A program made the translations under genes and the position numbers. DNA of 63,589 bases, filler included, from a bacterium (GTDB lineage: Bacteria; JAMORN01): assembly GCA_027063545.1 (NCBI GenBank). It is 11 parts of 11 records of this genome, joined end to end, with 100 filler letters (N's around TTAATTAATTAA, not from the genome) between each part and the next. Parts side by side here need not be neighbours in the genome. Positions count along the whole stretch, not along the records: positions 43,827 to 49,772 come from JAMORN010000163.1; 10 more parts are not named here. The stretch is one strand, 5' to 3'. Below, in pieces: positions 583-61,950 of this stretch (position 1 is the stretch's first letter; every line of letters starts with the position of its first letter). The notes beneath the pieces were generated by a model. It was given only the letters and a program-made list of their open reading frames with translations. It searched no databases and was not told the DNA's origin.

Positions 583-1899
583 TTACAAATTTATCTTTTC
601 TGCTATGCTATATAATATCTTAAGAGTTTCTTCAAAAGAAAAATGTTCATCAACTCTTTGTTTTAAAAAATTGTTTATATCTTCATTCAAATTAATAGCA
701 AGATCTATCTTAGGATTTGTTCCTTTCTGATAAGCACCTAAATTTATTAAATCTTCATTATCCCTATATATTGACATTAAAGTCTTAATTTTACCAGCTG
801 CTTCTAAATGTTTATTATCTACTATTTCACTCATAAGCCTTGAAATACTTGAGAGTACATCAATAGCAGGAAAATGATTTCTATTGGCTAAAGCCCTAGA
901 TAATACAATATGCCCATCAAGTATTCCCCTTGCAGTATCTGAAATAGGCTCGTCTAAATCATCCCCTTCAACTAATACTGTATATATACCTGTTATTGTC
1001 CCTTTAGAAGAATTCCCAGCCCTTTCCAATAATTTAGGCATTAATGCAAAAACACTAGGAGGATATCCCCTTGTAGTTGGAGGTTCTCCAATAGCTAAAC
1101 CTATCTCTCTCTGAGCCAAAGCAAATCTTGTTAAAGAATCCATCATTAAAAGTACATTCTTCCCTTTATCTCTAAAATATTCTGCTATTCTCGTTGCTAC
1201 AAAAGCAGCTTTTACCCTCTCTATCGCTGGCTTATCTGACGTTGCAACTATTACTACTGATTTCTTTAACCCTTCATCTTTCAAATCTCTTTCTAAAAAT
1301 TCCCTAACTTCCCTACCTCTTTCTCCTATCAAAGCAATAACATTTATATCTGCAGAAGAATATCTAGCTATCATACCAAGCAGTGTAGACTTCCCTACAC
1401 CACTTCCTGCAAATATTCCTATTCTTTGTCCCTTACCTATAGTTAATAGCCCATCTATAGATTTTATTCCTGTTTCAATTGGTTGAACTATCTTTTCTCT
1501 TTCTAAAGGATTAGGAGCATCATTAGATATTGAAACATATTCATATTTATTAACTTCTCCCTTATTGTCTATTAATTCACCTACACCATTTAATATTCTC
1601 CCTAACAATTCCTCAGATACTTTTATCCCTAGTATAGACCCTGTTGCTTCAACTATAAAACCTGATTTTATTCCTTCCATATGGGATAAAGGCATAATGT
1701 ATGTAATATTATTATTAAAACCAACTATCTCACCTTTAGAGATTACATTCCCTTTCTTATCTTTTATAAAAACTAACTCTCCTATAGAAGAAACAGGCCC
1801 TTCTGATTCAACTGTTAATCCTACAACCCTTTTTATTGTTCCTATGAGTCTATAAGAAATCTCATTGGATATTAGATTCTTATATTTTTCAAGAAACAT
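583..1899 (-). CDS. fliI: Flagellar export ATPase FliI
   Basis: GQRIGIFAGSGVGKST Walker A, IGERGRE, MDSLTRFA, GEPPTTRGYPPS, DGHIVL. Confidence 0.97.
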   Translation of the reverse strand: MFLEKYKNLISNEISYRLIGTIKRVVGLTVESEGPVSSIGELVFIKDKKGNVISKGEIVGFNNNITYIMPLSHMEGIKSGFIVEATGSILGIKVSEELLGRILNGVGELIDNKGEVNKYEYVSISNDAPNPLEREKIVQPIETGIKSIDGLLTIGKGQRIGIFAGSGVGKSTLLGMIARYSSADINVIALIGERGREVREFLERDLKDEGLKKSVVIVATSDKPAIERVKAAFVATRIAEYFRDKGKNVLLMMDSLTRFALAQREIGLAIGEPPTTRGYPPSVFALMPKLLERAGNSSKGTITGIYTVLVEGDDLDEPISDTARGILDGHIVLSRALANRNHFPAIDVLSSISRLMSEIVDNKHLEAAGKIKTLMSIYRDNEDLINLGAYQKGTNPKIDLAINLNEDINNFLKQRVDEHFSFEETLKILYSIAEKINL

Positions 1900-2638
1900 T
1901 ATTTTCCCATAATTCTAAAATTTTTTCCCTTAACTTTTTTATCCTTTCCTCAACCCTAGCGTCGACAATTCCCTTTTCAGATTTTACAATAACACTACCC
2001 TTTGAAAAATCCTCTCTAGGTATATACTCTATCAATTCCTTTTTAGCTTCTATTGGTTGCCACAAATATTCTTTTGATTTTAAAATCAACAAATCATTAG
2101 GATTTAAATAAATTTGAAGTTTTGAAGAAAAATCAATATACTCTACCAAATCTTTTAATACCTTTATAATATATTCTTTATCTTCTTCAATCTTTTTATA
2201 TATAATTTTCTCAACAAATATATTTAAAATCTCTATAAAGTCTCTTTCTATTAAACTCAACATCTCCTTTTTTGAATTCTCTATATTCTTTACAAGATCC
2301 TCTATAAGAGAAGAATATTGCTTTAATTCATTATCTAAAATCTGTTTATATTTTTCCTCTAAATCCTTCTCTGCTTTTTTATATCCCTCATCAAAAGCCT
2401 TACTTTTTTCTTCTATTATTTTTTTTTCATATTCTTTTTTTATATCCTCTATTATTCTATCTTTTTGTTTTAACTTTAGCTCCAAGTCCTTTAATTTAGC
2501 TTCATATTCGTCTACTATTTTATTTGTCTCTTCTTCTATATGTTCCTTTTCTAAGTCTGGTAAAATAAGATCATTAATCTCAAAACTCTTATTCTTTTTA
2601 TCTAAAAGATTTTTTATTTTATTACGATTTATATCCAT
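1889..2638 (-). CDS. fliH: Flagellar assembly protein FliH
   Basis: Coiled coil with AFDEGYKKA, C-terminal LNPND...GSVIVKSEKGIVDA; lies between fliG and fliI. Confidence 0.9.
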   Translation of the reverse strand: MDINRNKIKNLLDKKNKSFEINDLILPDLEKEHIEEETNKIVDEYEAKLKDLELKLKQKDRIIEDIKKEYEKKIIEEKSKAFDEGYKKAEKDLEEKYKQILDNELKQYSSLIEDLVKNIENSKKEMLSLIERDFIEILNIFVEKIIYKKIEEDKEYIIKVLKDLVEYIDFSSKLQIYLNPNDLLILKSKEYLWQPIEAKKELIEYIPREDFSKGSVIVKSEKGIVDARVEERIKKLREKILELWENNVS

Positions 2639-2656
2639 ATATAATCCTCTTTATAT

Positions 2657-3736
2657 CTACATAATTAATTCGTTCTCCCCACCTCTACCTGCAATAACAA
2701 TTTCACCTTCTTCTTCCAGACGTCTTACCACTTCTACAATCTTCTGTTGCGCAGCTTCAACATCCTTTACCCTAACAGGTCCCATATACTCCATCTCTTC
2801 TTTAATCATCTCAGCTGCTCTTGAAGACATATTCTTGAAGAATTTCTCTTTTAACTCATCACTAGCACCCTTTAAAGCTAATGTTAAATCTTTTGTATCT
2901 ATCTCTTTTAAAATTCTTTGGATACCTCTATCATCTATTAATAAAATATCTTCGAATACAAACATTAAATTCTTTATAGCTGTAGCAAGCTCTGGATTAT
3001 CTTTCTCTAATGTCCCTAAAATATTCTTCTCAGTAGCCATATCAACCATATTCATAATCTCAGCTATTGATTTTATTCCTCCAACTTCTGTTGTTGTACC
3101 TCCAGCAAGTCCCCTTATTTGATGTGCTAATATTTCATCTAACCTTTTTAATATATCTGGAGAAATACTTTTCATTGTTGCAATTCTTACAGCTACATCA
3201 ACCTGCATCTCTGGGGGTAAAGCGGATAAAATTTGCGCTGCTTTTTGAGTATCTAAATATGCCAAAAGTAATGCTATTGTTTGAGGGTGCTCATTTTGAA
3301 GTAAATTTACAAGTTGGGCTGTATCTACTTCATTTAATAAATCAAAACCTGTCTTTTGAATAGAACTTTTAATCTTTTCTATTAACTCTTTTGCTTTATC
3401 TGGACCTAAAGCGTCCATAAGTACTTTTTCGGCAAAAGATAATCCTCCCTGAGCCACAAATCTTTGTGCCATTAATATTTCATTAAACTCTTCCAGTACC
3501 ATATCCTTAACTATAGGATCTACATTCTGAAGTTTTGCAACTTCTGTTGATAAAACTTCTATTTCTTCTTCTGTAAGTTTTGCAAAAATCTTTGCTGAAG
3601 ACTTAGCCCCTAAAGAAATTAATACTATTGCTGCCTTTTGAACACCTGTTAAAGAATTATATATTTCTTTTGCTTTATTTAAAGCTTCGGAATCTTTATA
3701 TCTAGACTTAAAAAAAGTCTTTTTTTCCTTTGCCAT
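2657..3736 (-). CDS. fliG: Flagellar motor switch protein FliG
   Basis: QKAAIVL, EHPQTIAL, MFVFED, NMSSRAAEM, GPVRVKDVEAAQ. Confidence 0.97.
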   Translation of the reverse strand: MAKEKKTFFKSRYKDSEALNKAKEIYNSLTGVQKAAIVLISLGAKSSAKIFAKLTEEEIEVLSTEVAKLQNVDPIVKDMVLEEFNEILMAQRFVAQGGLSFAEKVLMDALGPDKAKELIEKIKSSIQKTGFDLLNEVDTAQLVNLLQNEHPQTIALLLAYLDTQKAAQILSALPPEMQVDVAVRIATMKSISPDILKRLDEILAHQIRGLAGGTTTEVGGIKSIAEIMNMVDMATEKNILGTLEKDNPELATAIKNLMFVFEDILLIDDRGIQRILKEIDTKDLTLALKGASDELKEKFFKNMSSRAAEMIKEEMEYMGPVRVKDVEAAQQKIVEVVRRLEEEGEIVIAGRGGENELIM

Positions 3737-6343: not shown

Positions 6344-6443
6344 NNNNNNNNNNNNNNNNNNNNNNNNNNNNNNNNNNNNNNNNNNNNTTAATTAATTAAN
6401 NNNNNNNNNNNNNNNNNNNNNNNNNNNNNNNNNNNNNNNNNNN
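6344..6443. other. Artificial contig spacer
   Basis: 100 nt: Ns flanking TTAATTAATTAA (stops in all frames). Confidence 0.99.
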
Positions 6444-12738: not shown

Positions 12739-12838
12739 NNNNNNNNNNNNNNNNNNNNNNNNNNNNNNNNNNNNNNNNNNNNTTAATTAATTAANNNNNN
12801 NNNNNNNNNNNNNNNNNNNNNNNNNNNNNNNNNNNNNN
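12739..12838. other. Artificial contig spacer
   Basis: Same 100-nt N/TTAATTAATTAA linker. Confidence 0.99.
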
Positions 12839-19029: not shown

Positions 19030-19129
19030 NNNNNNNNNNNNNNNNNNNNNNNNNNNNNNNNNNNNNNNNNNNNTTAATTAATTAANNNNNNNNNNNNNNN
19101 NNNNNNNNNNNNNNNNNNNNNNNNNNNNN
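19030..19129. other. Artificial contig spacer
   Basis: Same 100-nt linker. Confidence 0.99.
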
Positions 19130-43726: not shown

Positions 43727-43826
43727 NNNNNNNNNNNNNNNNNNNNNNNNNNNNNNNNNNNNNNNNNNNNTTAATTAATTAANNNNNNNNNNNNNNNNNN
43801 NNNNNNNNNNNNNNNNNNNNNNNNNN
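43727..43826. other. Artificial contig spacer
   Basis: Same 100-nt linker. Confidence 0.99.
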
Positions 43827-44869
43827 ATATCCATTATTGCTTCCTTAAGTTTATAAGCCTTATTCTGGGACTTACCTATAGTAGAGTCCCATCTTTTTTC
43901 ATATAATTTCAATTTAGATTCCGATAAATCATTTGCTTTTAAAGCCTCAATTGCCACTTCTGCTGCTATTTTGGCAGCATTCAACCCATATGTAATTCCT
44001 CCGCCACTTATAGGATTCACCTGTCTAGCTGCATCTCCTATAATCATAAAATTATTTTTTACCAACTTAGGAGCTCTTCTTGCTACAGGCACAGCACCTG
44101 TTATAAAATTTAAAACCTTTGCTTGTGGATAAAATTTTTCCATAAAAGAATCTAACAATACCTTTGGAGAATATTTTACAGCTTCTGTTCCTATAATACC
44201 AAGACCAATATTAGCAGTATTTTTAGATTTAGGGAATACCCATACATATCCTCCCGGAGCATACTCTTTATTTACATAAAAAATAGCTGATGGTTCTTTT
44301 ATATCAATATTATAAACAAAATATTGAGCACATATCTCTATATCATTTAAAGGTAAACTTGTATCTATACCATAATCTCTTGCTACTTTACTTTCAACTC
44401 CATCTGCTGCAACTATTAATCTTGCATAAAGTTCCTTTTCTCCAGTCATTGTTATAGCTTTTACCCCTACAACCCTTCCATTATCATCTAAAATTAAATT
44501 CTTTACATAATACTTTAAAAAGAAAACTCCTCCATTATCCATTGCAATAAATCCTAAAGCCTTATCAAAAATCTTTCTATCTAAAATTAAGGCATAATTA
44601 TCGCCTAAATCCAATTTAACTTGATAAAGACTTGGGGAATAAATTGTTGCAGAATTAAGTTCATAACTTACCCATCTATCATCAAAATAACCACCTAAAG
44701 CCATTTTTAATCCACCAATACCAACACCTTCACCACATCTAACGGGAACTCCTATCTCTCTATCTTTTTCTAATACAGCTACCTTAAATCCTGCTTCTGC
44801 TACTTTACTAGCAAAAAAATTCCCAACAGGCCCTGCTCCAACAACTATAACGTCGAATTCTCTATTCAT
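43827..44869 (-). CDS. Geranylgeranyl reductase family flavoprotein, archaeal DGGGPL-reductase-like, 3'-truncated
   Basis: VVGAGPVG, EK..EIGVPVRCGEG, AADGVES, APGGYVWVFPK (PxxYxWxFP), GDAARQVNPISGGG. Confidence 0.85.
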
Positions 44870-44886
44870 ATATATTATCCTTTAAC

Positions 44887-45060
44887 TTATTTTTCTATTT
44901 TTAAAGCCTTTGTCGGACAAATCTTTACACAAATACCGCACTCTGTGCATTTAGATTCTAATACTTCAAAATGATTTTCATATAAATTTATAGCATTAAA
45001 GGGACAAACTGCTACACATGCCCCACAAAAATCACATTTTTTTGTATCACATATTAACAT
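44887..45060 (-). CDS. 2[4Fe-4S] ferredoxin, 57 aa (missing from ORF track)
   Basis: Manual translation MLICDTKKCDFCGACVAVCPFNAINLYENHFEVLESKCTECGICVKICPTKALKIEK*; two CxxCxxCxxxCP motifs; SD-like AGAGGA upstream. Confidence 0.93.
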   Translation of the reverse strand: MLICDTKKCDFCGACVAVCPFNAINLYENHFEVLESKCTECGICVKICPTKALKIEK

Positions 45061-45063
45061 TTT

Positions 45064-46050
45064 TTAATCCTCTTTTAATTTTTTCTTTATAGATTCATAA
45101 ATTTTTTTTAATTTTTCTTTATCTTTTTTTGAAAAAGTATTATTGTTATAAAAGTAAAATAATTTTTTATATAAATCAAAAGCTGCTTGAGTTTTATTTA
45201 ATTTTTCTAACACAATAGCCTTTTCATACATTAAAACAAACCAATTATAAGGATATTTATCTTTTATTTTATCATAAAATTCCAGTAATCTGTTTGTGTA
45301 AAACAAAAATTTATTATGTTTATTCCATTTCTTATAAAGCTTTATAAAATCCCATAAATATAATCTATCTCTATTATTGTTTTCATATCCTTTTTTTATT
45401 ATAGCCTCAGCGATTTTATAATCTCCTTCTTCAATATATATACCTATTAATGTATGAATAGCCATCTCCTTAGAAAAAAGGCTATTATCTATTGCCTTCC
45501 TTAATAAATAAATAGCTTTCTTTTTATTTGTTTTTTCCCTTATACCTAACCACCATAACTTTTCTCCTATTTTCCCTTTACCATAATAATAAAATCCTAA
45601 ATAATAATAAGCATCATAAAGAGTTGAATCTATGTTAATGCTTCTTTTAATATTTTCTATCCCATCAAATGCATATAATATTCCTTTTAACTGATCATTA
45701 TCTATCATATAAGCCCCTTTTACAATTTTAATAGCTCCTAAATAATATTCCTTCCAAGCATCATTCTTATATAATTTAGCTAAGGAATCAGTTATTCTCA
45801 TATAATATAACATATCCTTCTCTTTAAAATTAGAAGCATAATCTAACATAATAGCCCCATATAATAATGTTTTTAAATAGTAGCCTATAGGATCATTAGG
45901 ATATTTTTTTATTAAAATGTTGTATAAACTATCCACTCTATTATAATCTTGATATGTTAAATAATATATAGATTTTTTGATTAAAATGGAATCTTTATCC
46001 CACCATATTGGAGAATCTGCATATATAGAGATACTATAAATATTTACCAC
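45064..46050 (-). CDS. Exported TPR-repeat protein
   Basis: Helical repeats with YPNDPIGYY and LYDAYYYLG; start may lie upstream at ATT 46086. Confidence 0.7.
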   Translation of the reverse strand: MVNIYSISIYADSPIWWDKDSILIKKSIYYLTYQDYNRVDSLYNILIKKYPNDPIGYYLKTLLYGAIMLDYASNFKEKDMLYYMRITDSLAKLYKNDAWKEYYLGAIKIVKGAYMIDNDQLKGILYAFDGIENIKRSINIDSTLYDAYYYLGFYYYGKGKIGEKLWWLGIREKTNKKKAIYLLRKAIDNSLFSKEMAIHTLIGIYIEEGDYKIAEAIIKKGYENNNRDRLYLWDFIKLYKKWNKHNKFLFYTNRLLEFYDKIKDKYPYNWFVLMYEKAIVLEKLNKTQAAFDLYKKLFYFYNNNTFSKKDKEKLKKIYESIKKKLKED

Positions 46051-46061
46051 AAAGAAAGATA

Positions 46062-46832
46062 TTATAATAATCCAAATCTTTTTAATAAAACACTCCCTTT
46101 TGAAAATTGCAAATAGAGTTTTTCATTTAAACTATTAAAAAAATTTATTAATCTATTTTTCTTTAATATTTTATAATATAAAGTATACTTATTGTCAAAA
46201 ATTATTCCTGTATTTGCTATTAATAAATTATTATCTCTAATTCCTAAATTAGAGTTTATTGAGAAAATAAATCTATAATAATTCTTTGCTATATTCAAAG
46301 AAAATTTATCTATTACTCCAAAAGGCGGAGAAAATGATATAACATCTACATTAAATTTTTTTTCTAAAATATATTTTGAATCCTTTAACTCTTTTTCTAA
46401 TTGGGAATACTCTAAATAACTTAATGGTTTATGAGTTAAAGAATGAGAGCCTATAGAATAACCTCTACTTATGAATTCTTTAATTGTTTCATAATCCAAG
46501 GATTTTCTTTTTTTACCTATTACATCCCATAAAAAATATTCTCCTATGTAATTGCCTATAACAAATAGTATACCCTTGAAATCTTTGGGTATACTATTTG
46601 ATGTAATTAAAAAATTTAAACTTTCCTCAGCATCATCAAAAAAAATTATCACGCCTTTAGAGTTTATTTTATTATTTAAAATATCAATATCCGTATAAAA
46701 ATTATACCCACTTTCTTTTATCAGCCATAAAAAATCTATAAACTCATTTCTATCCACCTTATTTCCTAAAAAATAAAGGCCTTTATCTTTAAAACCATGA
46801 AACCCTATAATGGAAATATTCTTAATATCCAT
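46062..46832 (-). CDS. Polysaccharide deacetylase (CE4/NodB-like)
   Basis: IFFDDA, GSHSLTH, FSPPFG. Confidence 0.8.
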   Translation of the reverse strand: MDIKNISIIGFHGFKDKGLYFLGNKVDRNEFIDFLWLIKESGYNFYTDIDILNNKINSKGVIIFFDDAEESLNFLITSNSIPKDFKGILFVIGNYIGEYFLWDVIGKKRKSLDYETIKEFISRGYSIGSHSLTHKPLSYLEYSQLEKELKDSKYILEKKFNVDVISFSPPFGVIDKFSLNIAKNYYRFIFSINSNLGIRDNNLLIANTGIIFDNKYTLYYKILKKNRLINFFNSLNEKLYLQFSKGSVLLKRFGLL

Positions 46833-47783
46833 CTATTTTCCCAGTTTAGGATATATAGTATTATGTCTTAATTTATAATATATTAGTGTTATTATGTAAA
46901 AGAAAAGGTAAGTAATCAATAAATAAGGAAAAAAAATAGATGTTATAAGCATTAATACACCACCCCCAATTTGATAAGTATAATATAAAGAAAACTCTTT
47001 ATATTTAAAGATAAATGGTAGCATATAAGAAAAAATTGATGATATTGATGATAATATAACTATCAAATTTTTAGTCTTAACTCCCAATATAAGAGAGATA
47101 ATCAAAAAAATAATTGATAAAATCAAAGATTTCTTTATACCAATAAAAATAGGAGTTGTAATCTTTCCATTTTTTAGATCTCCCTTAATATCTGGTAATG
47201 TAGAACCTATGCTTCCAGCTCCCATAAGAAAAAAATAAGCAACTATATTCAAAAATATATCCTGCTGGAAAATCATATTAAATTTAAATGTATAAGTAGA
47301 TGAGACATAACCTAAAATAACAGAAACTACCCCATATCCTAGAGCATTGGATAAAAAATCTAGAAATGGTCTTCCTGTAAAATAAAATGGCTTGTTGTTA
47401 TATAGATAGCCTATAATTAAAGCAATAAAATATAAAATTGCATAGTATATAAAATTGTTAGAAAAAGATATTATAGTAAACCCCACAATTATATAAAAAA
47501 ATTCAACAACCTTAGCTAATTTAATATTTTTTATTTCTATAAATCCTGGGCCTCTATTAACTTTATCAACCTCATAATCATTTATTCTATTGGATAAAAA
47601 TATAGATAACATTACAAATGAAAATCCTATTATATTTAATAAAAAATCTTTATTAATATCAAAATAAAAATGTAGAGTTGATAAATCTTTATCCAATAAA
47701 AATCCTAAAACCATAAATAAATATACTGTTGGTAAAAGTATCGGACGAGATAAAAAAAATATATCAATTAACTTAATTATCAA
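46833..47783 (-). CDS. UbiA-family membrane prenyltransferase
   Basis: FFLSRP, NRINDYEVDKVN, LPDIKGDLKNG, multiple TM helices. Confidence 0.88.
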   Translation of the reverse strand: MIIKLIDIFFLSRPILLPTVYLFMVLGFLLDKDLSTLHFYFDINKDFLLNIIGFSFVMLSIFLSNRINDYEVDKVNRGPGFIEIKNIKLAKVVEFFYIIVGFTIISFSNNFIYYAILYFIALIIGYLYNNKPFYFTGRPFLDFLSNALGYGVVSVILGYVSSTYTFKFNMIFQQDIFLNIVAYFFLMGAGSIGSTLPDIKGDLKNGKITTPIFIGIKKSLILSIIFLIISLILGVKTKNLIVILSSISSIFSYMLPFIFKYKEFSLYYTYQIGGGVLMLITSIFFPYLLITYLFFYIITLIYYKLRHNTIYPKLGK

Positions 47784-47787
47784 TAAT

Positions 47788-48762
47788 TTATTCTCCTGTT
47801 AATGAAGGATAATTTTTATTAAATCTATATTTATAATAGATTTTTGAAATTAAATATGTAAAAAGTACCACAATCAAATACCATTTATAATAAAAAAATA
47901 AAGAAATTGTTACAAAAGCTACTGAAGTCTTAAATGCTATAAAAATAATCTTTTTATTATCATCTCTTAGAAGGTATAAATATACTAAAAGACTACCCAA
48001 TACACCTATAATAAAAGGACAACTTTTTTCTATTATATCACTTCTCATCAAAAATATACTCAAAAAAGCTAATAACATAAATAAAATAGAGACTTTTATT
48101 GTAATATCTTTCCCATATTTTACTACAAACGTAATTTTTCCCGCCTTTCTATCTCCTTGCTCATCAACTATGGTTGTTAATAAAAATATAGCAGCATTAC
48201 CAAAGGTCATAGGCAAAGAATATATAAAAGCTTCTTTAGAAATATGAGTAATAGATATCCAACCTGCAAGAAATGTTACAAGTCCATGTCCCAAACTATC
48301 TGCTAAAAGACCTAATATAGGCTTATTTTTCCATAAAAAAGGTGGAAGATTATAAGTTACTCCAAAAAAAGATGCCATAAAAAATACTAAAACAATATCC
48401 CATCTACTATAAAATATTCCCATATATAAAGCATATAAATTTGATATAGAAAACAAAAGAATAGATAATATTATTGCATGGGATTTAGGTACAACATTTT
48501 CCGATATTAAAAATAATTTTTTATTTAATTTGTCTGTTTCTATATCATTCAGCTGATTAAAGATATAATAACTAGATACAGCTAGAGAAAAAAATATAAT
48601 ATTAAAAAAAAATTCTTTATTAAAAAATGGAGATATATTATTACCTGAAAATAAAGCTCCATAATAATAACCAAATAAAAAAACCGTCCAAACAGGTACT
48701 AACAAAAATAGCCTCATTAAAAAAAGATAATCTATAAATAATCTAAAATAATTTTTCATCAT
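47788..48762 (-). CDS. UbiA-family membrane prenyltransferase (second paralog)
   Basis: NQLNDIETDKLN, YNLPPF.WK, IVDEQGDRKAG, multiple TM helices. Confidence 0.88.
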   Translation of the reverse strand: MMKNYFRLFIDYLFLMRLFLLVPVWTVFLFGYYYGALFSGNNISPFFNKEFFFNIIFFSLAVSSYYIFNQLNDIETDKLNKKLFLISENVVPKSHAIILSILLFSISNLYALYMGIFYSRWDIVLVFFMASFFGVTYNLPPFLWKNKPILGLLADSLGHGLVTFLAGWISITHISKEAFIYSLPMTFGNAAIFLLTTIVDEQGDRKAGKITFVVKYGKDITIKVSILFMLLAFLSIFLMRSDIIEKSCPFIIGVLGSLLVYLYLLRDDNKKIIFIAFKTSVAFVTISLFFYYKWYLIVVLFTYLISKIYYKYRFNKNYPSLTGE

Positions 48763-49772
48763 AATTTTCTACTTATTATAGGTAAATATACAGTTATAGA
48801 AAAGCCTTCATCAGAAGAATTATCTATTTCTATATCTCCGTTAAAGGCTTTCACCATCTTATTAACAGCATTTAATCCTATTCCTATATGGAAATTAGGA
48901 TCTTTTGTATAATATAAATTTAATAAATAATCCTCATCATTAATATAGTATCCAACAGAAACAACTTTTATATATAAACTAAAAGACTTATCTGGAATTA
49001 ACCCAACCCCTACTTTAACCTTTATTTTATTTGAATGTGAATGCTCTATAGCATTAAAAACCAAATTTTCTAATATTCTTTTTAAAAATTCTTTATCAAT
49101 CAATACATGAGAATATTTTTCTTCTATTTCTATTATAAATTCTATATCCTTATCTATTATTTGGGTTATTTTGCTGTAGTACTCTTGAAACTCCTTAAAT
49201 AATTCCCTAACATCATATTCTTCTATATTTAACTCTATAGCAGAAGATAATACTTTTATATTAAATAAATCTCTATTTATCTTCTCTGTTAAAAGATCTA
49301 ACTTTGCAAAAGTATCTGATTCTGCACTTCTAACCAAAATATTTCCACTTAAACTTTCCACTATTTCATTTAACTGTTTACTATATCCTTCTAAAACTTT
49401 TATAGGTCCAGATACTATTCTCTCCCATAATTTTTTTATAACTTTTGTCTCATTTTCCTGTATTTGTTGTTTAAAGTATGTAACATCTCTAATAACAATC
49501 AAATAAAATGGCTCTTGTATACCCTCTGTGGATCTTGAAACAGAATAGAATATTATTTGATAAGTAAAAATCTTGTTTTGATATGTAACATCCTTGAAAA
49601 ATGATAACATATTCAATGATGACAAATCTATATATTTATAGTTTAAATCTTTCATAAAATCTAAATCTAAAATATTATCTAATTTTTCTATTTTTAATAT
49701 TTTTAATATATTATTAGCCTGCCAATTTTTAAAAAATATACTACCATCACCTCTAAATACAAAAATAGCATC
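48759..49772 (-). CDS. PAS-like + HATPase sensor-kinase-like protein with degenerate catalytic motifs, 5'-truncated
   Basis: Frame open to gap (DAIFVFRGDGSIFFKN...IRDVT); N-box NLVFNAIEH, YTK, GIGL; no His in the expected H-box, G1 reads VSVG. Confidence 0.7.
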   Translation of the reverse strand, partial: DAIFVFRGDGSIFFKNWQANNILKILKIEKLDNILDLDFMKDLNYKYIDLSSLNMLSFFKDVTYQNKIFTYQIIFYSVSRSTEGIQEPFYLIVIRDVTYFKQQIQENETKVIKKLWERIVSGPIKVLEGYSKQLNEIVESLSGNILVRSAESDTFAKLDLLTEKINRDLFNIKVLSSAIELNIEEYDVRELFKEFQEYYSKITQIIDKDIEFIIEIEEKYSHVLIDKEFLKRILENLVFNAIEHSHSNKIKVKVGVGLIPDKSFSLYIKVVSVGYYINDEDYLLNLYYTKDPNFHIGIGLNAVNKMVKAFNGDIEIDNSSDEGFSITVYLPIISRKL

Positions 49773-49872
49773 NNNNNNNNNNNNNNNNNNNNNNNNNNNN
49801 NNNNNNNNNNNNNNNNTTAATTAATTAANNNNNNNNNNNNNNNNNNNNNNNNNNNNNNNNNNNNNNNNNNNN
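49773..49872. other. Artificial contig spacer
   Basis: Same 100-nt linker. Confidence 0.99.
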
Positions 49873-61850: not shown

Positions 61851-61950
61851 NNNNNNNNNNNNNNNNNNNNNNNNNNNNNNNNNNNNNNNNNNNNTTAATT
61901 AATTAANNNNNNNNNNNNNNNNNNNNNNNNNNNNNNNNNNNNNNNNNNNN
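61851..61950. other. Artificial contig spacer
   Basis: Same 100-nt linker. Confidence 0.99.

Follow-up and report, generated by a model that had tools for sequence, protein, structure and literature searches.

A distinct clade of UbiA-family prenyltransferases beside a ferredoxin–geranylgeranyl reductase pair: a candidate accessory isoprenoid-lipid cluster of FCB-type bacteria

The case for naturally "mixed" archaeal/bacterial membranes rests mainly on bacteria of the Fibrobacteres–Chlorobi–Bacteroidetes (FCB) group, and we know of no mixed-membrane lipid that has been linked to a gene in live FCB cells. Two kinds of described systems are among the closest to the locus considered here. First, genes of archaeal-type ether-lipid synthesis, coding for geranylgeranylglyceryl phosphate synthase (GGGPS) as well as for digeranylgeranylglyceryl phosphate synthase (DGGGPS), have been published from FCB bacteria together with a euryarchaeal-like geranylgeranyl reductase (GGR) (Villanueva et al. 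2020, PMC7852524; Coleman et al. 2019, PMC6431249; these and the other papers cited are drawn on for part of their text). Second, the GGR of Methanosarcina acetivorans needs the ferredoxin of its own locus, and 4Fe-4S genes flank the GGRs of Archaeoglobus and Thermoplasma (PMC9385802, PMC10821996). Here we describe a contig of 5946 bases and GC content 0.247 (JAMORN010000163.1), which occupies exactly positions 43827..49772 of the window, i.e., the whole 63.6-kb stretch of DNA that was analysed. It codes for two divergent UbiA-family prenyltransferases, UbiA-1 and UbiA-2, along with a ferredoxin (Fd) and a GGR.

All seven genes of the contig lie on its minus strand, in the order kinase-like gene, UbiA-1 (paralogue A), UbiA-2 (paralogue B), carbohydrate esterase family 4 (CE4) deacetylase, tetratricopeptide repeat (TPR) protein, Fd and GGR, with successive junctions of -4, 4, 0, 11, 3 and 17 nt. 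This order is the union of the associations that we found among relatives. A preliminary description, made from the sequence alone, had listed these seven co-directional genes with their tight spacings, and its account of the gene set holds, with export of the TPR protein depending on the choice of start codon: Pfam and NCBIfam scores bear out the family names, the motifs it quoted are present in the translations (in the GGR as REIGVPVRCGEG and PGGYVWVFP, and the Asp-rich motifs in both UbiAs), and the contig is truncated at both ends, the kinase frame being open at its 5' end and the GGR lacking about 45 C-terminal residues.

UbiA-1 (47788..48762, minus strand, 324 aa) and UbiA-2 (46833..47783, minus strand, 316 aa) are 31% identical and match PF01040 with 75.1 and 46.9 bits, respectively, against a gathering score of 34.2. 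Both keep the two Asp-rich motifs of the superfamily, N-x3-D-x3-D and D-x3-D (NQLNDIETD and DEQGD in UbiA-1; NRINDYEVD and DIKGD in UbiA-2), which serve in Mg2+/diphosphate binding, and by sequence the two proteins are predicted to be catalytically intact. The motif residues N68, D72, D76, D199 and D203 are invariant in the 34-row alignment A1. The predicted model of UbiA-1 (predicted local distance difference test, pLDDT, 94.5) has the all-helical, multi-pass membrane fold of UbiA enzymes, with 4TQ3, 6M31, 8DJK, 8J8J and 4OD5 as its top Foldseek matches. By profile and fold alike, its nearest solved proteins are Archaeoglobus fulgidus UbiA (AfUbiA; 4TQ3, 77 bits) and Methanocaldococcus jannaschii DGGGPS (MjDGGGPS; 6M31, 65 bits).

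None of the NCBIfam models comes near its curated cut-off for either protein, the best scores being 37.7 bits for UbiA-1 (BchG subfamily) and 42.3 bits for UbiA-2 (PRK12875). On the DGGGP synthase model NF009523 (PRK12884) and its siblings NF009521 and NF009522, with cut-offs of 269-353, UbiA-1 scores 37, 18 and 26 bits and UbiA-2 28, 20 and 26 bits, the values on NF009523 being 37 and 28. The MenA models reach at best 32.4 bits (UbiA-1) against a cut-off of 277, and the models NF008976-NF008978 of decaprenylphosphoryl-5-phosphoribose (DPPR) synthase reach 24.3 bits (cut-off 207) and 19.3 bits (cut-off 474); the UbiA_proteo, CyoE and MqnP models gave no match at E<=0.01 among the window proteins. 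Five relatives' genomes carry, beside their clade member, UbiA paralogues that the models do recognise: DGGGPS-like proteins of 267-279 aa with 174-246 bits on NF009523/NF009521 (4/5 genomes), DPPR-synthase-like proteins with 231-315 bits, two of them above the 234-bit cut-off (three genomes), and MenA-like proteins. Casting the UbiAs as the DGGGP synthase of an archaeol pathway is thus at odds both with their own scores on NF009523 and with the separate DGGGPS-like UbiAs of the relatives.

These proteins also stand apart in a tree of 98 rows, comprising 83 clade rows, 12 relatives' paralogues and E. coli UbiA, MenA and CyoE, with rows shorter than 250 aa excluded. The clade rows form one group with a Shimodaira–Hasegawa-like approximate likelihood ratio (SH-aLRT) of 98; the DGGGPS-like (98), MenA (99) and DPPR-like (100) groups lie outside it, as do E. 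coli UbiA and CyoE. Of these, the DPPR-like group comes nearest to the clade, though weakly (SH-aLRT 80). Judged from these models and this tree, UbiA-1 and UbiA-2 are not orthologues of DGGGP synthase, MenA, UbiA, CyoE or DPPR synthase and belong to a clade of their own. The preliminary description had proposed such a tree as a check, with a position inside the MenA, UbiA or CyoE clades, coupled to a MenJ-type reductase, as the outcome pointing to ordinary quinone synthesis; both UbiAs were instead found outside all three. Further, when DGGGPS-like queries were run under the blastp settings that the FCB study of 2020 gives in the part drawn on here (PMC7852524; E<1e-10, coverage of 70%, database size 2e7), 0/83 clade rows were retrieved.

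The clade is sparsely represented and phyletically confined. UbiA-1 matched only 36 proteins in a search of 5.8 billion, the best foreign one being 43% identical and a few being named "candidate division WOR-3". A profile of those 36 proteins yielded 406 matching cluster representatives (E<=1e-30) out of 1.84 billion, and the top 150 matches of this search are all clade members. In the contigs of species genomes, 239/344 pattern-matching stretches were confirmed as relatives. The locus counts given below rest on the best 80 of these 239 confirmed loci, all from metagenome-assembled genomes (MAGs), whose titles name Zixibacteria, Marinimicrobia, Fibrobacterota/Chitinispirillia, WOR-3, Stahlbacteria, Cloacimonadota, KSB1 and others; in this analysis, clade members were met only in FCB-type bacteria. 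The hallmarks of the clade are NQxxDxxxD, DxxGD and a C-terminal tail of the form YYKxRFxxxYP(T/S)L, which reads YYKYRFNKNYP in UbiA-1 and YYKLRHNTIYP in UbiA-2. NxxxDxxxD occurs in 83/83 clade rows, "NQ" in 82/83 and the tail in 80/83, while the six other UbiAs compared have "ND" in motif 1 and are without the YYKxRFxxxYP tail.

Within the clade, two subclades can be distinguished. Subclade A (SH-aLRT 82) unites UbiA-1 with proteins of Zixibacteria and Marinimicrobia and with the first copy of Fibrobacterota tandems; subclade B (SH-aLRT 93) unites UbiA-2 with WOR-3, Stahlbacteria and Cloacimonadota proteins and with the second tandem copies of Fibrobacterota/Chitinispirillia, to which UbiA-2 is joined at an SH-aLRT of 99. 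The neighbours were counted separately for the 46 non-B loci (L035 and L065, outside the tree, were counted with A) and the 34 B loci. Among the non-B loci, we found Fd in 20, GGR downstream on the same strand in 19, CdsA upstream in 18, a PHP-like hydrolase upstream in 13, the TPR gene downstream (by tblastn) in two and CE4 in none. Among the B loci, the TPR gene lies downstream in 14 and CE4 occurs in three, with zero counts for Fd, GGR downstream on the same strand, CdsA upstream and the PHP-like hydrolase upstream; a GGR lies within 4 kb in three of them, in another position. By clustering of open reading frames (ORFs), the TPR family stands at +1 to +3 in 20/80 loci and a GGR at most five genes away in 21/80.

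These associations recur as lineage-specific gene orders: pyrH-frr-uppS-cdsA-UbiA in Zixibacteria, PHP-purF-UbiA-Fd-GGR-dinG-MenA-like in Marinimicrobia, PHP-UbiA-UbiA-TPR-Fd-GGR in Chitinispirillia, UbiA-TPR in WOR-3, and GT4-CE4-UbiA-TPR-GT2 (GT, glycosyltransferase) in Cloacimonadota (L023, L047). In three loci, UbiA-UbiA-TPR is followed by Fd-GGR (L019, L033) or by Fd (L072). Conservation of gene order in other genomes, which the preliminary description had put forward as a check, was thus observed for UbiA-Fd-GGR, UbiA-TPR and UbiA-UbiA in MAGs of several phyla, and the genes form a conserved functional neighbourhood rather than a chance one.

The neighbourhoods hold several other genes. 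At -1 or -2 of the subclade-A UbiA, MAGs whose titles include Marinimicrobia and Chitinispirillia share a conserved metallohydrolase of the PHP superfamily, roughly 350 aa long, which is CehA/McbA-like (59-64 bits, the cut-off being 80) and has an HxH...SDG motif (L028, L029, L033, L035, L039, L045, L049, L053, L064, L070, L073). Six Marinimicrobia loci (L045, L053, L055, L059, L064, L070) encode, 3' of dinG and two or three genes past the GGR, a MenA-like prenyltransferase of some 456 aa whose N-terminus is extended by about 150 residues. In Zixibacteria-type loci, an AmmeMemoRadiSam radical SAM enzyme (TIGR04337, 310 bits against 220) follows the clade UbiA (at +1 in L010, L015, L016, L021, L042, L043 and L051, and also in L006); our literature search found nothing on the function of the AmmeMemoRadiSam system. 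In L065 and L078, the clade UbiA is followed by a protein of a single ORF cluster; the protein in L065 is a fusion of Memo with AMMECR1. Finally, a Cloacimonadota locus (L098, G001:C105, ORF 628..3006) codes for a 792-aa protein in which a UbiA domain (~246-495) is fused to C-terminal TPRs (~550-789); this echoes the UbiA-TPR gene pair, and its UbiA part falls outside the clade in the tree.

The GGR (43827..44869, minus strand, 347 aa present, its 3' end cut by the contig end) scores 208 bits on TIGR02032 against a cut-off of 158.8 and 90.3 bits on GGR_cat (PF22578) against 27. An identical full-length protein of 392 aa (P0187) is encoded elsewhere on a 16,259-bp contig. The motif VPVRCGEG holds the catalytic Cys (RCGE), and PGGYVWVFP is the PxxYxWxFP cavity motif, following the reading of these motifs in PMC10821996. 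Although the protein, short by its missing residues, does not reach the cut-offs of the equivalog models of archaeal digeranylgeranylglycerophospholipid (DGGGPL) reductase (200.9 bits against 780 on NF041160 and 181.7 against 580 on NF041080), it scores far better on them than on MenJ (NF045655, 69.6 bits against 700) or BchP/ChlP (111 against 343). A full-length relative from L045 reaches 242 bits against 780 on the archaeal DGGGPL-reductase model. Among solved structures, the Thermoplasma DGGGPL reductase (3OZ2, E = 2e-50) is its best match. The GGR shares 41-46% identity with FCB proteins and with proteins bearing the names of Methanosarcina and Methanoperedens, the values for these two genera being 44-46%. 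On this evidence of likeness, the reductase is of the archaeal type, as had been proposed, being Thermoplasma/Methanosarcina-like and not MenJ-like. Immediately upstream lies the gene of a 57-aa 2x[4Fe-4S] ferredoxin (44887..45060, minus strand; Fer4, 61.8 bits) with two CxxCxxCxxxCP motifs, the presumed electron donor of the GGR, and by its gene content the ferredoxin-GGR pairing matches the euryarchaeal arrangement. One 84,830-bp contig seems to encode both a 43%-identical homologue of UbiA-1 (P0005) and a 49%-identical homologue of the GGR (P0189).

We then considered how the clade relates to the archaeal-type lipid gene set across samples of 61 Marinimicrobia and 61 Fibrobacterota genomes, in which NF009523 was used at a threshold that, among control genomes, was positive only in the four archaeal ones. 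The UbiA clade was found in 22/61 Marinimicrobia and 33/61 Fibrobacterota genomes, GGGPS in 49/61 and 58/61, DGGGPS-like UbiA in 57/61 and 56/61, and GGR in 55/61 Marinimicrobia genomes, the phylum in which it was sought. Thus, GGGPS, DGGGPS-like UbiA and GGR are nearly always present in the same phyla, which makes the cluster an accessory branch, rather than the core, of the FCB archaeal-type lipid set. The frequency of GGGPS also tells against the UbiAs of the contig as a substitute for that enzyme. On the Fibrobacterota counts of both GGGPS and DGGGPS-like genes, we rejected the idea, raised by a genome lacking both GGGPS and DGGGPS (G002), that tandem UbiAs replace the two enzymes in Fibrobacterota; and the Fe-ADH_2 model was discarded as a marker of glycerol-1-phosphate dehydrogenase (G1PDH), being unspecific and positive in 13/14 control genomes. 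In 21/22 clade-positive Marinimicrobia genomes, the GGR lies about 0.2 kb downstream of the clade UbiA on the same contig and strand, and in the exception the two genes are on different contigs. Among the 33 clade-positive Fibrobacterota, 21 have an adjacent tandem pair and a further one carries its two copies on separate contigs, the rest having a single copy. Most clade-positive genomes hold one clade copy, and this speaks against a mechanism that depends on two steps or on a heterodimer. In the WOR-3 genome G004 (L126, G004:C25, 7397..9460), the order alaS-Fd-GGR-GGGPS is followed by RmlA-like, SIS and GHMP-kinase genes; GGGPS here comes directly after the Fd-GGR pair, which ties the reductase to the ether-lipid gene set. 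In the Zixibacteria genome G005 (L128), GGGPS is next to alaS and Fd-GGR is beside murJ.

The remaining genes of the contig are a deacetylase, a TPR protein and a kinase-like fragment. The CE4 protein (46062..46832, minus strand, 256 aa) matches Polysacc_deac_1 (PF01522) with 55.9 bits against 23.1 and keeps DD66 and H130-S-L-T-H134, the Asp-His-His metal site; RxPY-type and LxH motifs, sought by regular expressions, were not found, and its deacetylase activity is a prediction. It has neither a signal peptide nor a hydrophobic segment. CE4 homologues adjoin the clade in L023, L047, L075, L007 and L068. The TPR gene (minus strand) extends from 45064 to 46086 if it starts at an ATT (340 aa) or to 46050 if it starts at a GTG (328 aa), and its TPR_17/TPR_14 matches are weak, both under their gathering scores. 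The ATT at 46086 lies seven bases after an AAGGGAG Shine-Dalgarno-like site and overlaps the CE4 stop by 25 nt; translation from it yields a KK plus hydrophobic, signal-peptide-like N-terminus, as in 21 homologues, whereas translation from the first ATG/GTG/TTG start, GTG 46050, does not. The gene thus probably starts at the non-canonical ATT, with a standard call from the GTG trimming a signal-like N-terminus, and export of the protein, as first described, is plausible on the ATT start and not on the GTG start. This family lies directly downstream of the clade UbiA in relatives, and in an ESM Atlas search the protein met only TPR clusters of FCB bacteria, all of them unnamed. A predicted complex of UbiA-1 with the TPR protein scored 0.00 in a run without controls, which speaks neither for nor against binding. 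The sensor histidine kinase-like fragment (48759..49772, minus strand, 337 aa), whose 5' end is cut by the contig end and whose stop overlaps the UbiA-1 start by 4 nt, combines HATPase_c (44.3 bits) with a PAS-like N-terminal part. HisKA gave no match at E<=0.01 in the fragment, whose N-terminus lies beyond the contig end, and its histidines stand only at 222, 244, 246 and 295, all within or just before the ATPase domain. The epithet "degenerate kinase" is therefore apt.

Taken together, we read the contig as carrying an accessory isoprenoid-lipid cluster of FCB-type bacteria, a general reading in which our confidence and our doubt are about evenly balanced; the cluster probably makes a saturated isoprenoid lipid. 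In this scheme, each UbiA would move a polyprenyl group, most likely geranylgeranyl (C20), from its diphosphate onto a membrane-bound acceptor that would be other than, or not only, the substrate of the canonical DGGGPS-like enzyme. The ferredoxin would reduce the FAD of the GGR, which would then saturate the prenyl chain or chains. The cytoplasmic CE4 may de-N-acetylate a sugar head group, the exported TPR protein may handle the product on the periplasmic side, and the histidine-less kinase-like gene would be regulatory at most. The pairing of GT4 and deacetylase genes in Cloacimonadota recalls the logic of the GlcN-lipid and thiol cofactor pathways. The interpretation first offered for this locus, a prenylated and then saturated membrane product, is thus partly supported, by the conserved neighbourhood, by the placement of the UbiAs outside the quinone and heme families, by the archaeal-type GGR and by its pairing with a ferredoxin, and is not supported as far as an archaeol-like product would need the UbiAs to be its DGGGPS.

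Several observations weigh against this account. The NCBIfam models, all far under cut-off for both UbiAs, point to no particular acceptor, and the tree comes from a quick search (LG+G4) made without archaeal reference sequences. The A/B split, with its moderate support (82 and 93), may mirror species history and not two functions. The clade is patchy within its phyla (22/61 and 33/61), and the GGR is found in 33/39 clade-negative Marinimicrobia genomes, so that the reductase is not dependent on the clade UbiAs. The TPR family likewise occurs in 17/39 clade-negative genomes of that phylum vs 19/22 clade-positive ones, counts uncorrected for kinship. Neither GGR nor TPR gene is adjacent in the 20 Zixibacteria-type loci, and the CE4 association is thin (5/80 loci and the window) and varies in orientation. 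Finally, isoprenoid-lipid genes, among them those for GGGPS, DGGGPS-like UbiA, geranylgeranyl diphosphate (GGPP) synthase, G1PDH, CarS and polyprenyl synthase, are absent among the 62 other ORFs of the window.

The alternative that survives best, which we nonetheless consider unlikely, is that the UbiAs are extra DGGGPS-type enzymes acting on GGGP or a related glycerol-phosphate ether, yielding an archaeol-like diether of another chain length, stereochemistry or regulation that Fd-GGR would saturate. The nearest solved relatives by profile and fold, AfUbiA and MjDGGGPS, would fit such a role, as would the co-occurrence of the clade with GGGPS and GGR in its phyla. The position of a clade UbiA directly downstream of cdsA in 18/80 loci can be seen in the same light, for bacterial CdsA is able to activate archaeol-type lipids according to the part of the 2020 study drawn on here (PMC7852524), and CarS was above cut-off in 0/5 relatives' genomes. 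Set against this, the separate DGGGPS-like gene in the great majority of genomes of both phyla leaves a second enzyme for the step unneeded, and the clade differs from those paralogues in its scores on NF009523 (37/28 bits against 174-246), in its place in the tree and in its failure to be retrieved by the published blastp criterion.

Somewhat less probable still is a reading in which the UbiAs act on a polyprenyl phosphate as DPPR synthase does, making a lipid-linked sugar donor or carrier for an envelope glycan whose carrier the GGR would saturate, as in dolichol. The CE4, the exported TPR protein and the GT4 and GT2 genes of the Cloacimonadota loci (L023, L047) would then belong to a glycan pathway, and the weak proximity of the DPPR-like group in the tree, the uppS-cdsA-UbiA order of Zixibacteria and the PHP/CehA-like metallohydrolase upstream in 13/80 loci all point the same way. 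In mycobacteria, a phosphatase follows DPPR synthase. Yet the DPPR synthase models give at most 24.3 bits against cut-offs of at least 207, the solved DPPR synthase, at 40.7 bits, is a poorer match than AfUbiA or DGGGPS, and true DPPR-synthase-like genes exist separately in three relatives' genomes; further, the purF adjoining the clade UbiA scores as a normal member of its family (484.5 bits, cut-off 350), and the GT genes were met in one lineage only.

A bolder reading would make A and B the third and fourth prenyltransferases of a bacterial "archaeal-type" lipid pathway, building saturated isoprenoid glycolipids of a new class, for instance an ether lipid of phytanyl type whose amino-sugar head group is de-N-acetylated, with the conserved YP tail of the UbiA handing the lipid to the exported TPR protein for the outer leaflet or outer membrane. 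We regard this as speculative and improbable; if it were true, many FCB bacteria would carry an isoprenoid envelope lipid missed by standard fatty-acid-based lipidomics.

A plain quinone pathway, with aromatic prenylation of the MenA/UbiA type and side-chain reduction of the MenJ type, appears very improbable. The MenA-like gene downstream of the GGR in several Marinimicrobia loci and the weak matches of UbiA-1 to the MenA models (32 bits) could be cited for it, but the MenA, UbiA and MqnP models are far below cut-off or give no match at E<=0.01, the clade is separate from the MenA group (SH-aLRT 99), E. coli UbiA and CyoE, and the GGR prefers the DGGGPL reductase models to MenJ (200.9 and 181.7 against 69.6 bits). 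Chance juxtaposition or an assembly artefact, which a short metagenome contig of ~5x depth from a fragmented bin and the rarity of the CE4 and kinase associations elsewhere might suggest, is scarcely credible, being largely refuted by synteny, since UbiA-Fd-GGR, UbiA-TPR and the UbiA-UbiA tandem recur across phyla, and is further opposed by the junctions of -4 to +17 nt and by contigs of three runs that cover the stretch at 95-100% identity with one T/C difference and without a well-supported rearrangement.

The window itself consists of eleven contigs of about 6 kb chained, longest first, by linkers of the form N50-TTAATTAATTAA-N50. Two such non-biological assembly joints, without strand, flank the contig at 43727..43826 and 49773..49872, and further ones lie at 6344..6443, 12739..12838, 19030..19129 and so on up to 61851..61950, so that window context across a linker is artificial. 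A twelfth TTAATTAATTAA, at window 15002, is natural sequence within a contig. Piecewise corroboration of the contig comes from three public runs with the label "hydrothermal vent metagenome", whose contigs match it at the identity and depth given above; among these contigs we saw no supported rearrangement, the only joints having 21-letter sides. A T/C polymorphism stands at window 45232, in the 3' part of the TPR gene, and the C read in the contigs of all three runs implies that strain variants coexist. A metagenome scan with UbiA-1 returned the contig itself (L136) as its sole match. The remaining contigs, unlinked but of the same bin, encode flagellar genes, LptD, AcrB and housekeeping genes. 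An attempt to place the bin by its MutS gave 45-50% identity to four phyla and was thus uninformative on taxonomy. On another contig (window 52337..55815), an 875-aa Fe-S/flavin oxidoreductase (Fer2_4, Fer4_20, Pyr_redox_2, Fer4_7) adjoins a NuoF-like fragment; this region looks like an electron-bifurcating hydrogenase- or NfnB-like module, unlinked to the lipid cluster.

The analysis bears on FCB lipids in two ways. First, several phyla couple a euryarchaeal-type Fd-GGR pair to a UbiA clade that earlier searches for DGGGPS by homology would have passed over; given this link to an overlooked clade, the isoprenoid lipid repertoire of FCB bacteria is probably wider than GGGPS plus DGGGPS. Second, the clade offers a concrete and cheap target for heterologous expression, and cultivable Fibrobacterota/Chitinispirillia carrying the tandem would permit genetics. 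The literature searched, the supplements of the FCB papers lying outside that search, yielded no account of this second UbiA clade or its tandem form, nor of any tie between the clade and Fd-GGR, TPR or CE4. The label of an "undescribed system" thus applies, as far as the search reached, to the UbiA clade and its neighbourhood, and does not extend to the archaeal-type lipid genes and euryarchaeal-like GGR of FCB bacteria, which the two papers cited at the outset had already published.

Compared with those FCB gene sets, the cluster shares the organism group, the UbiA superfamily and the euryarchaeal-like GGR, and relatives of the contig carry GGGPS and DGGGPS-like genes at the frequencies given above. 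The difference lies in the UbiAs, which fall in another clade, in a separate group of the tree and with far lower scores, and in its partners, TPR, CE4 and the PHP-like hydrolase, which do not figure in the parts of the two papers drawn on (PMC7852524, PMC6431249), whose supplements may hold wider UbiA trees. The euryarchaeal GGR with its cognate ferredoxin is matched in the small 2x[4Fe-4S] gene beside a GGR with RCGEG and PxxYxWxFP, and the contig departs from it in its bacterial host, in the place of the ferredoxin upstream of the GGR within a UbiA operon and in falling short of the DGGGPL-reductase cut-offs. The pairs ChlG/BchG and ChlP/BchP likewise combine a UbiA-family prenyltransferase with a subsequent GGR-family reductase, and BchG/ChlG models are among the best, though weak, matches of UbiA-1 (37.7 and 32 bits against cut-offs of 212-313), with chlorophyll a synthase at 60.5 bits in the PDB profile search; however, the GGR is far from ChlP/BchP, and signs of phototrophy are absent elsewhere in the window. 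DPPR synthase (8J8J) resembles the UbiAs as a superfamily enzyme of envelope glycan synthesis and as the weak nearest neighbour of the clade, and differs in its low scores (40.7 bits in the PDB profile search, at most 24.3 on NCBIfam models) and in having separate counterparts in relatives. The closest structural counterparts of UbiA-1 are AfUbiA (4TQ3) and MjDGGGPS (6M31/7BPU), which have the same fold (Foldseek probability 1.00, TM-score 0.63-0.72) and the motifs N-x3-D-x3-D and D-x3-D in common with it; an invariant Tyr136 and a nearly invariant Lys144 stand, in a position match made by eye, at the site expected for motif 2. At 18-20% identity to these two enzymes, the clade is set apart by "NQ" in place of "ND", by xN(K)KLF after motif 1 and by a C-terminal tail of its own.

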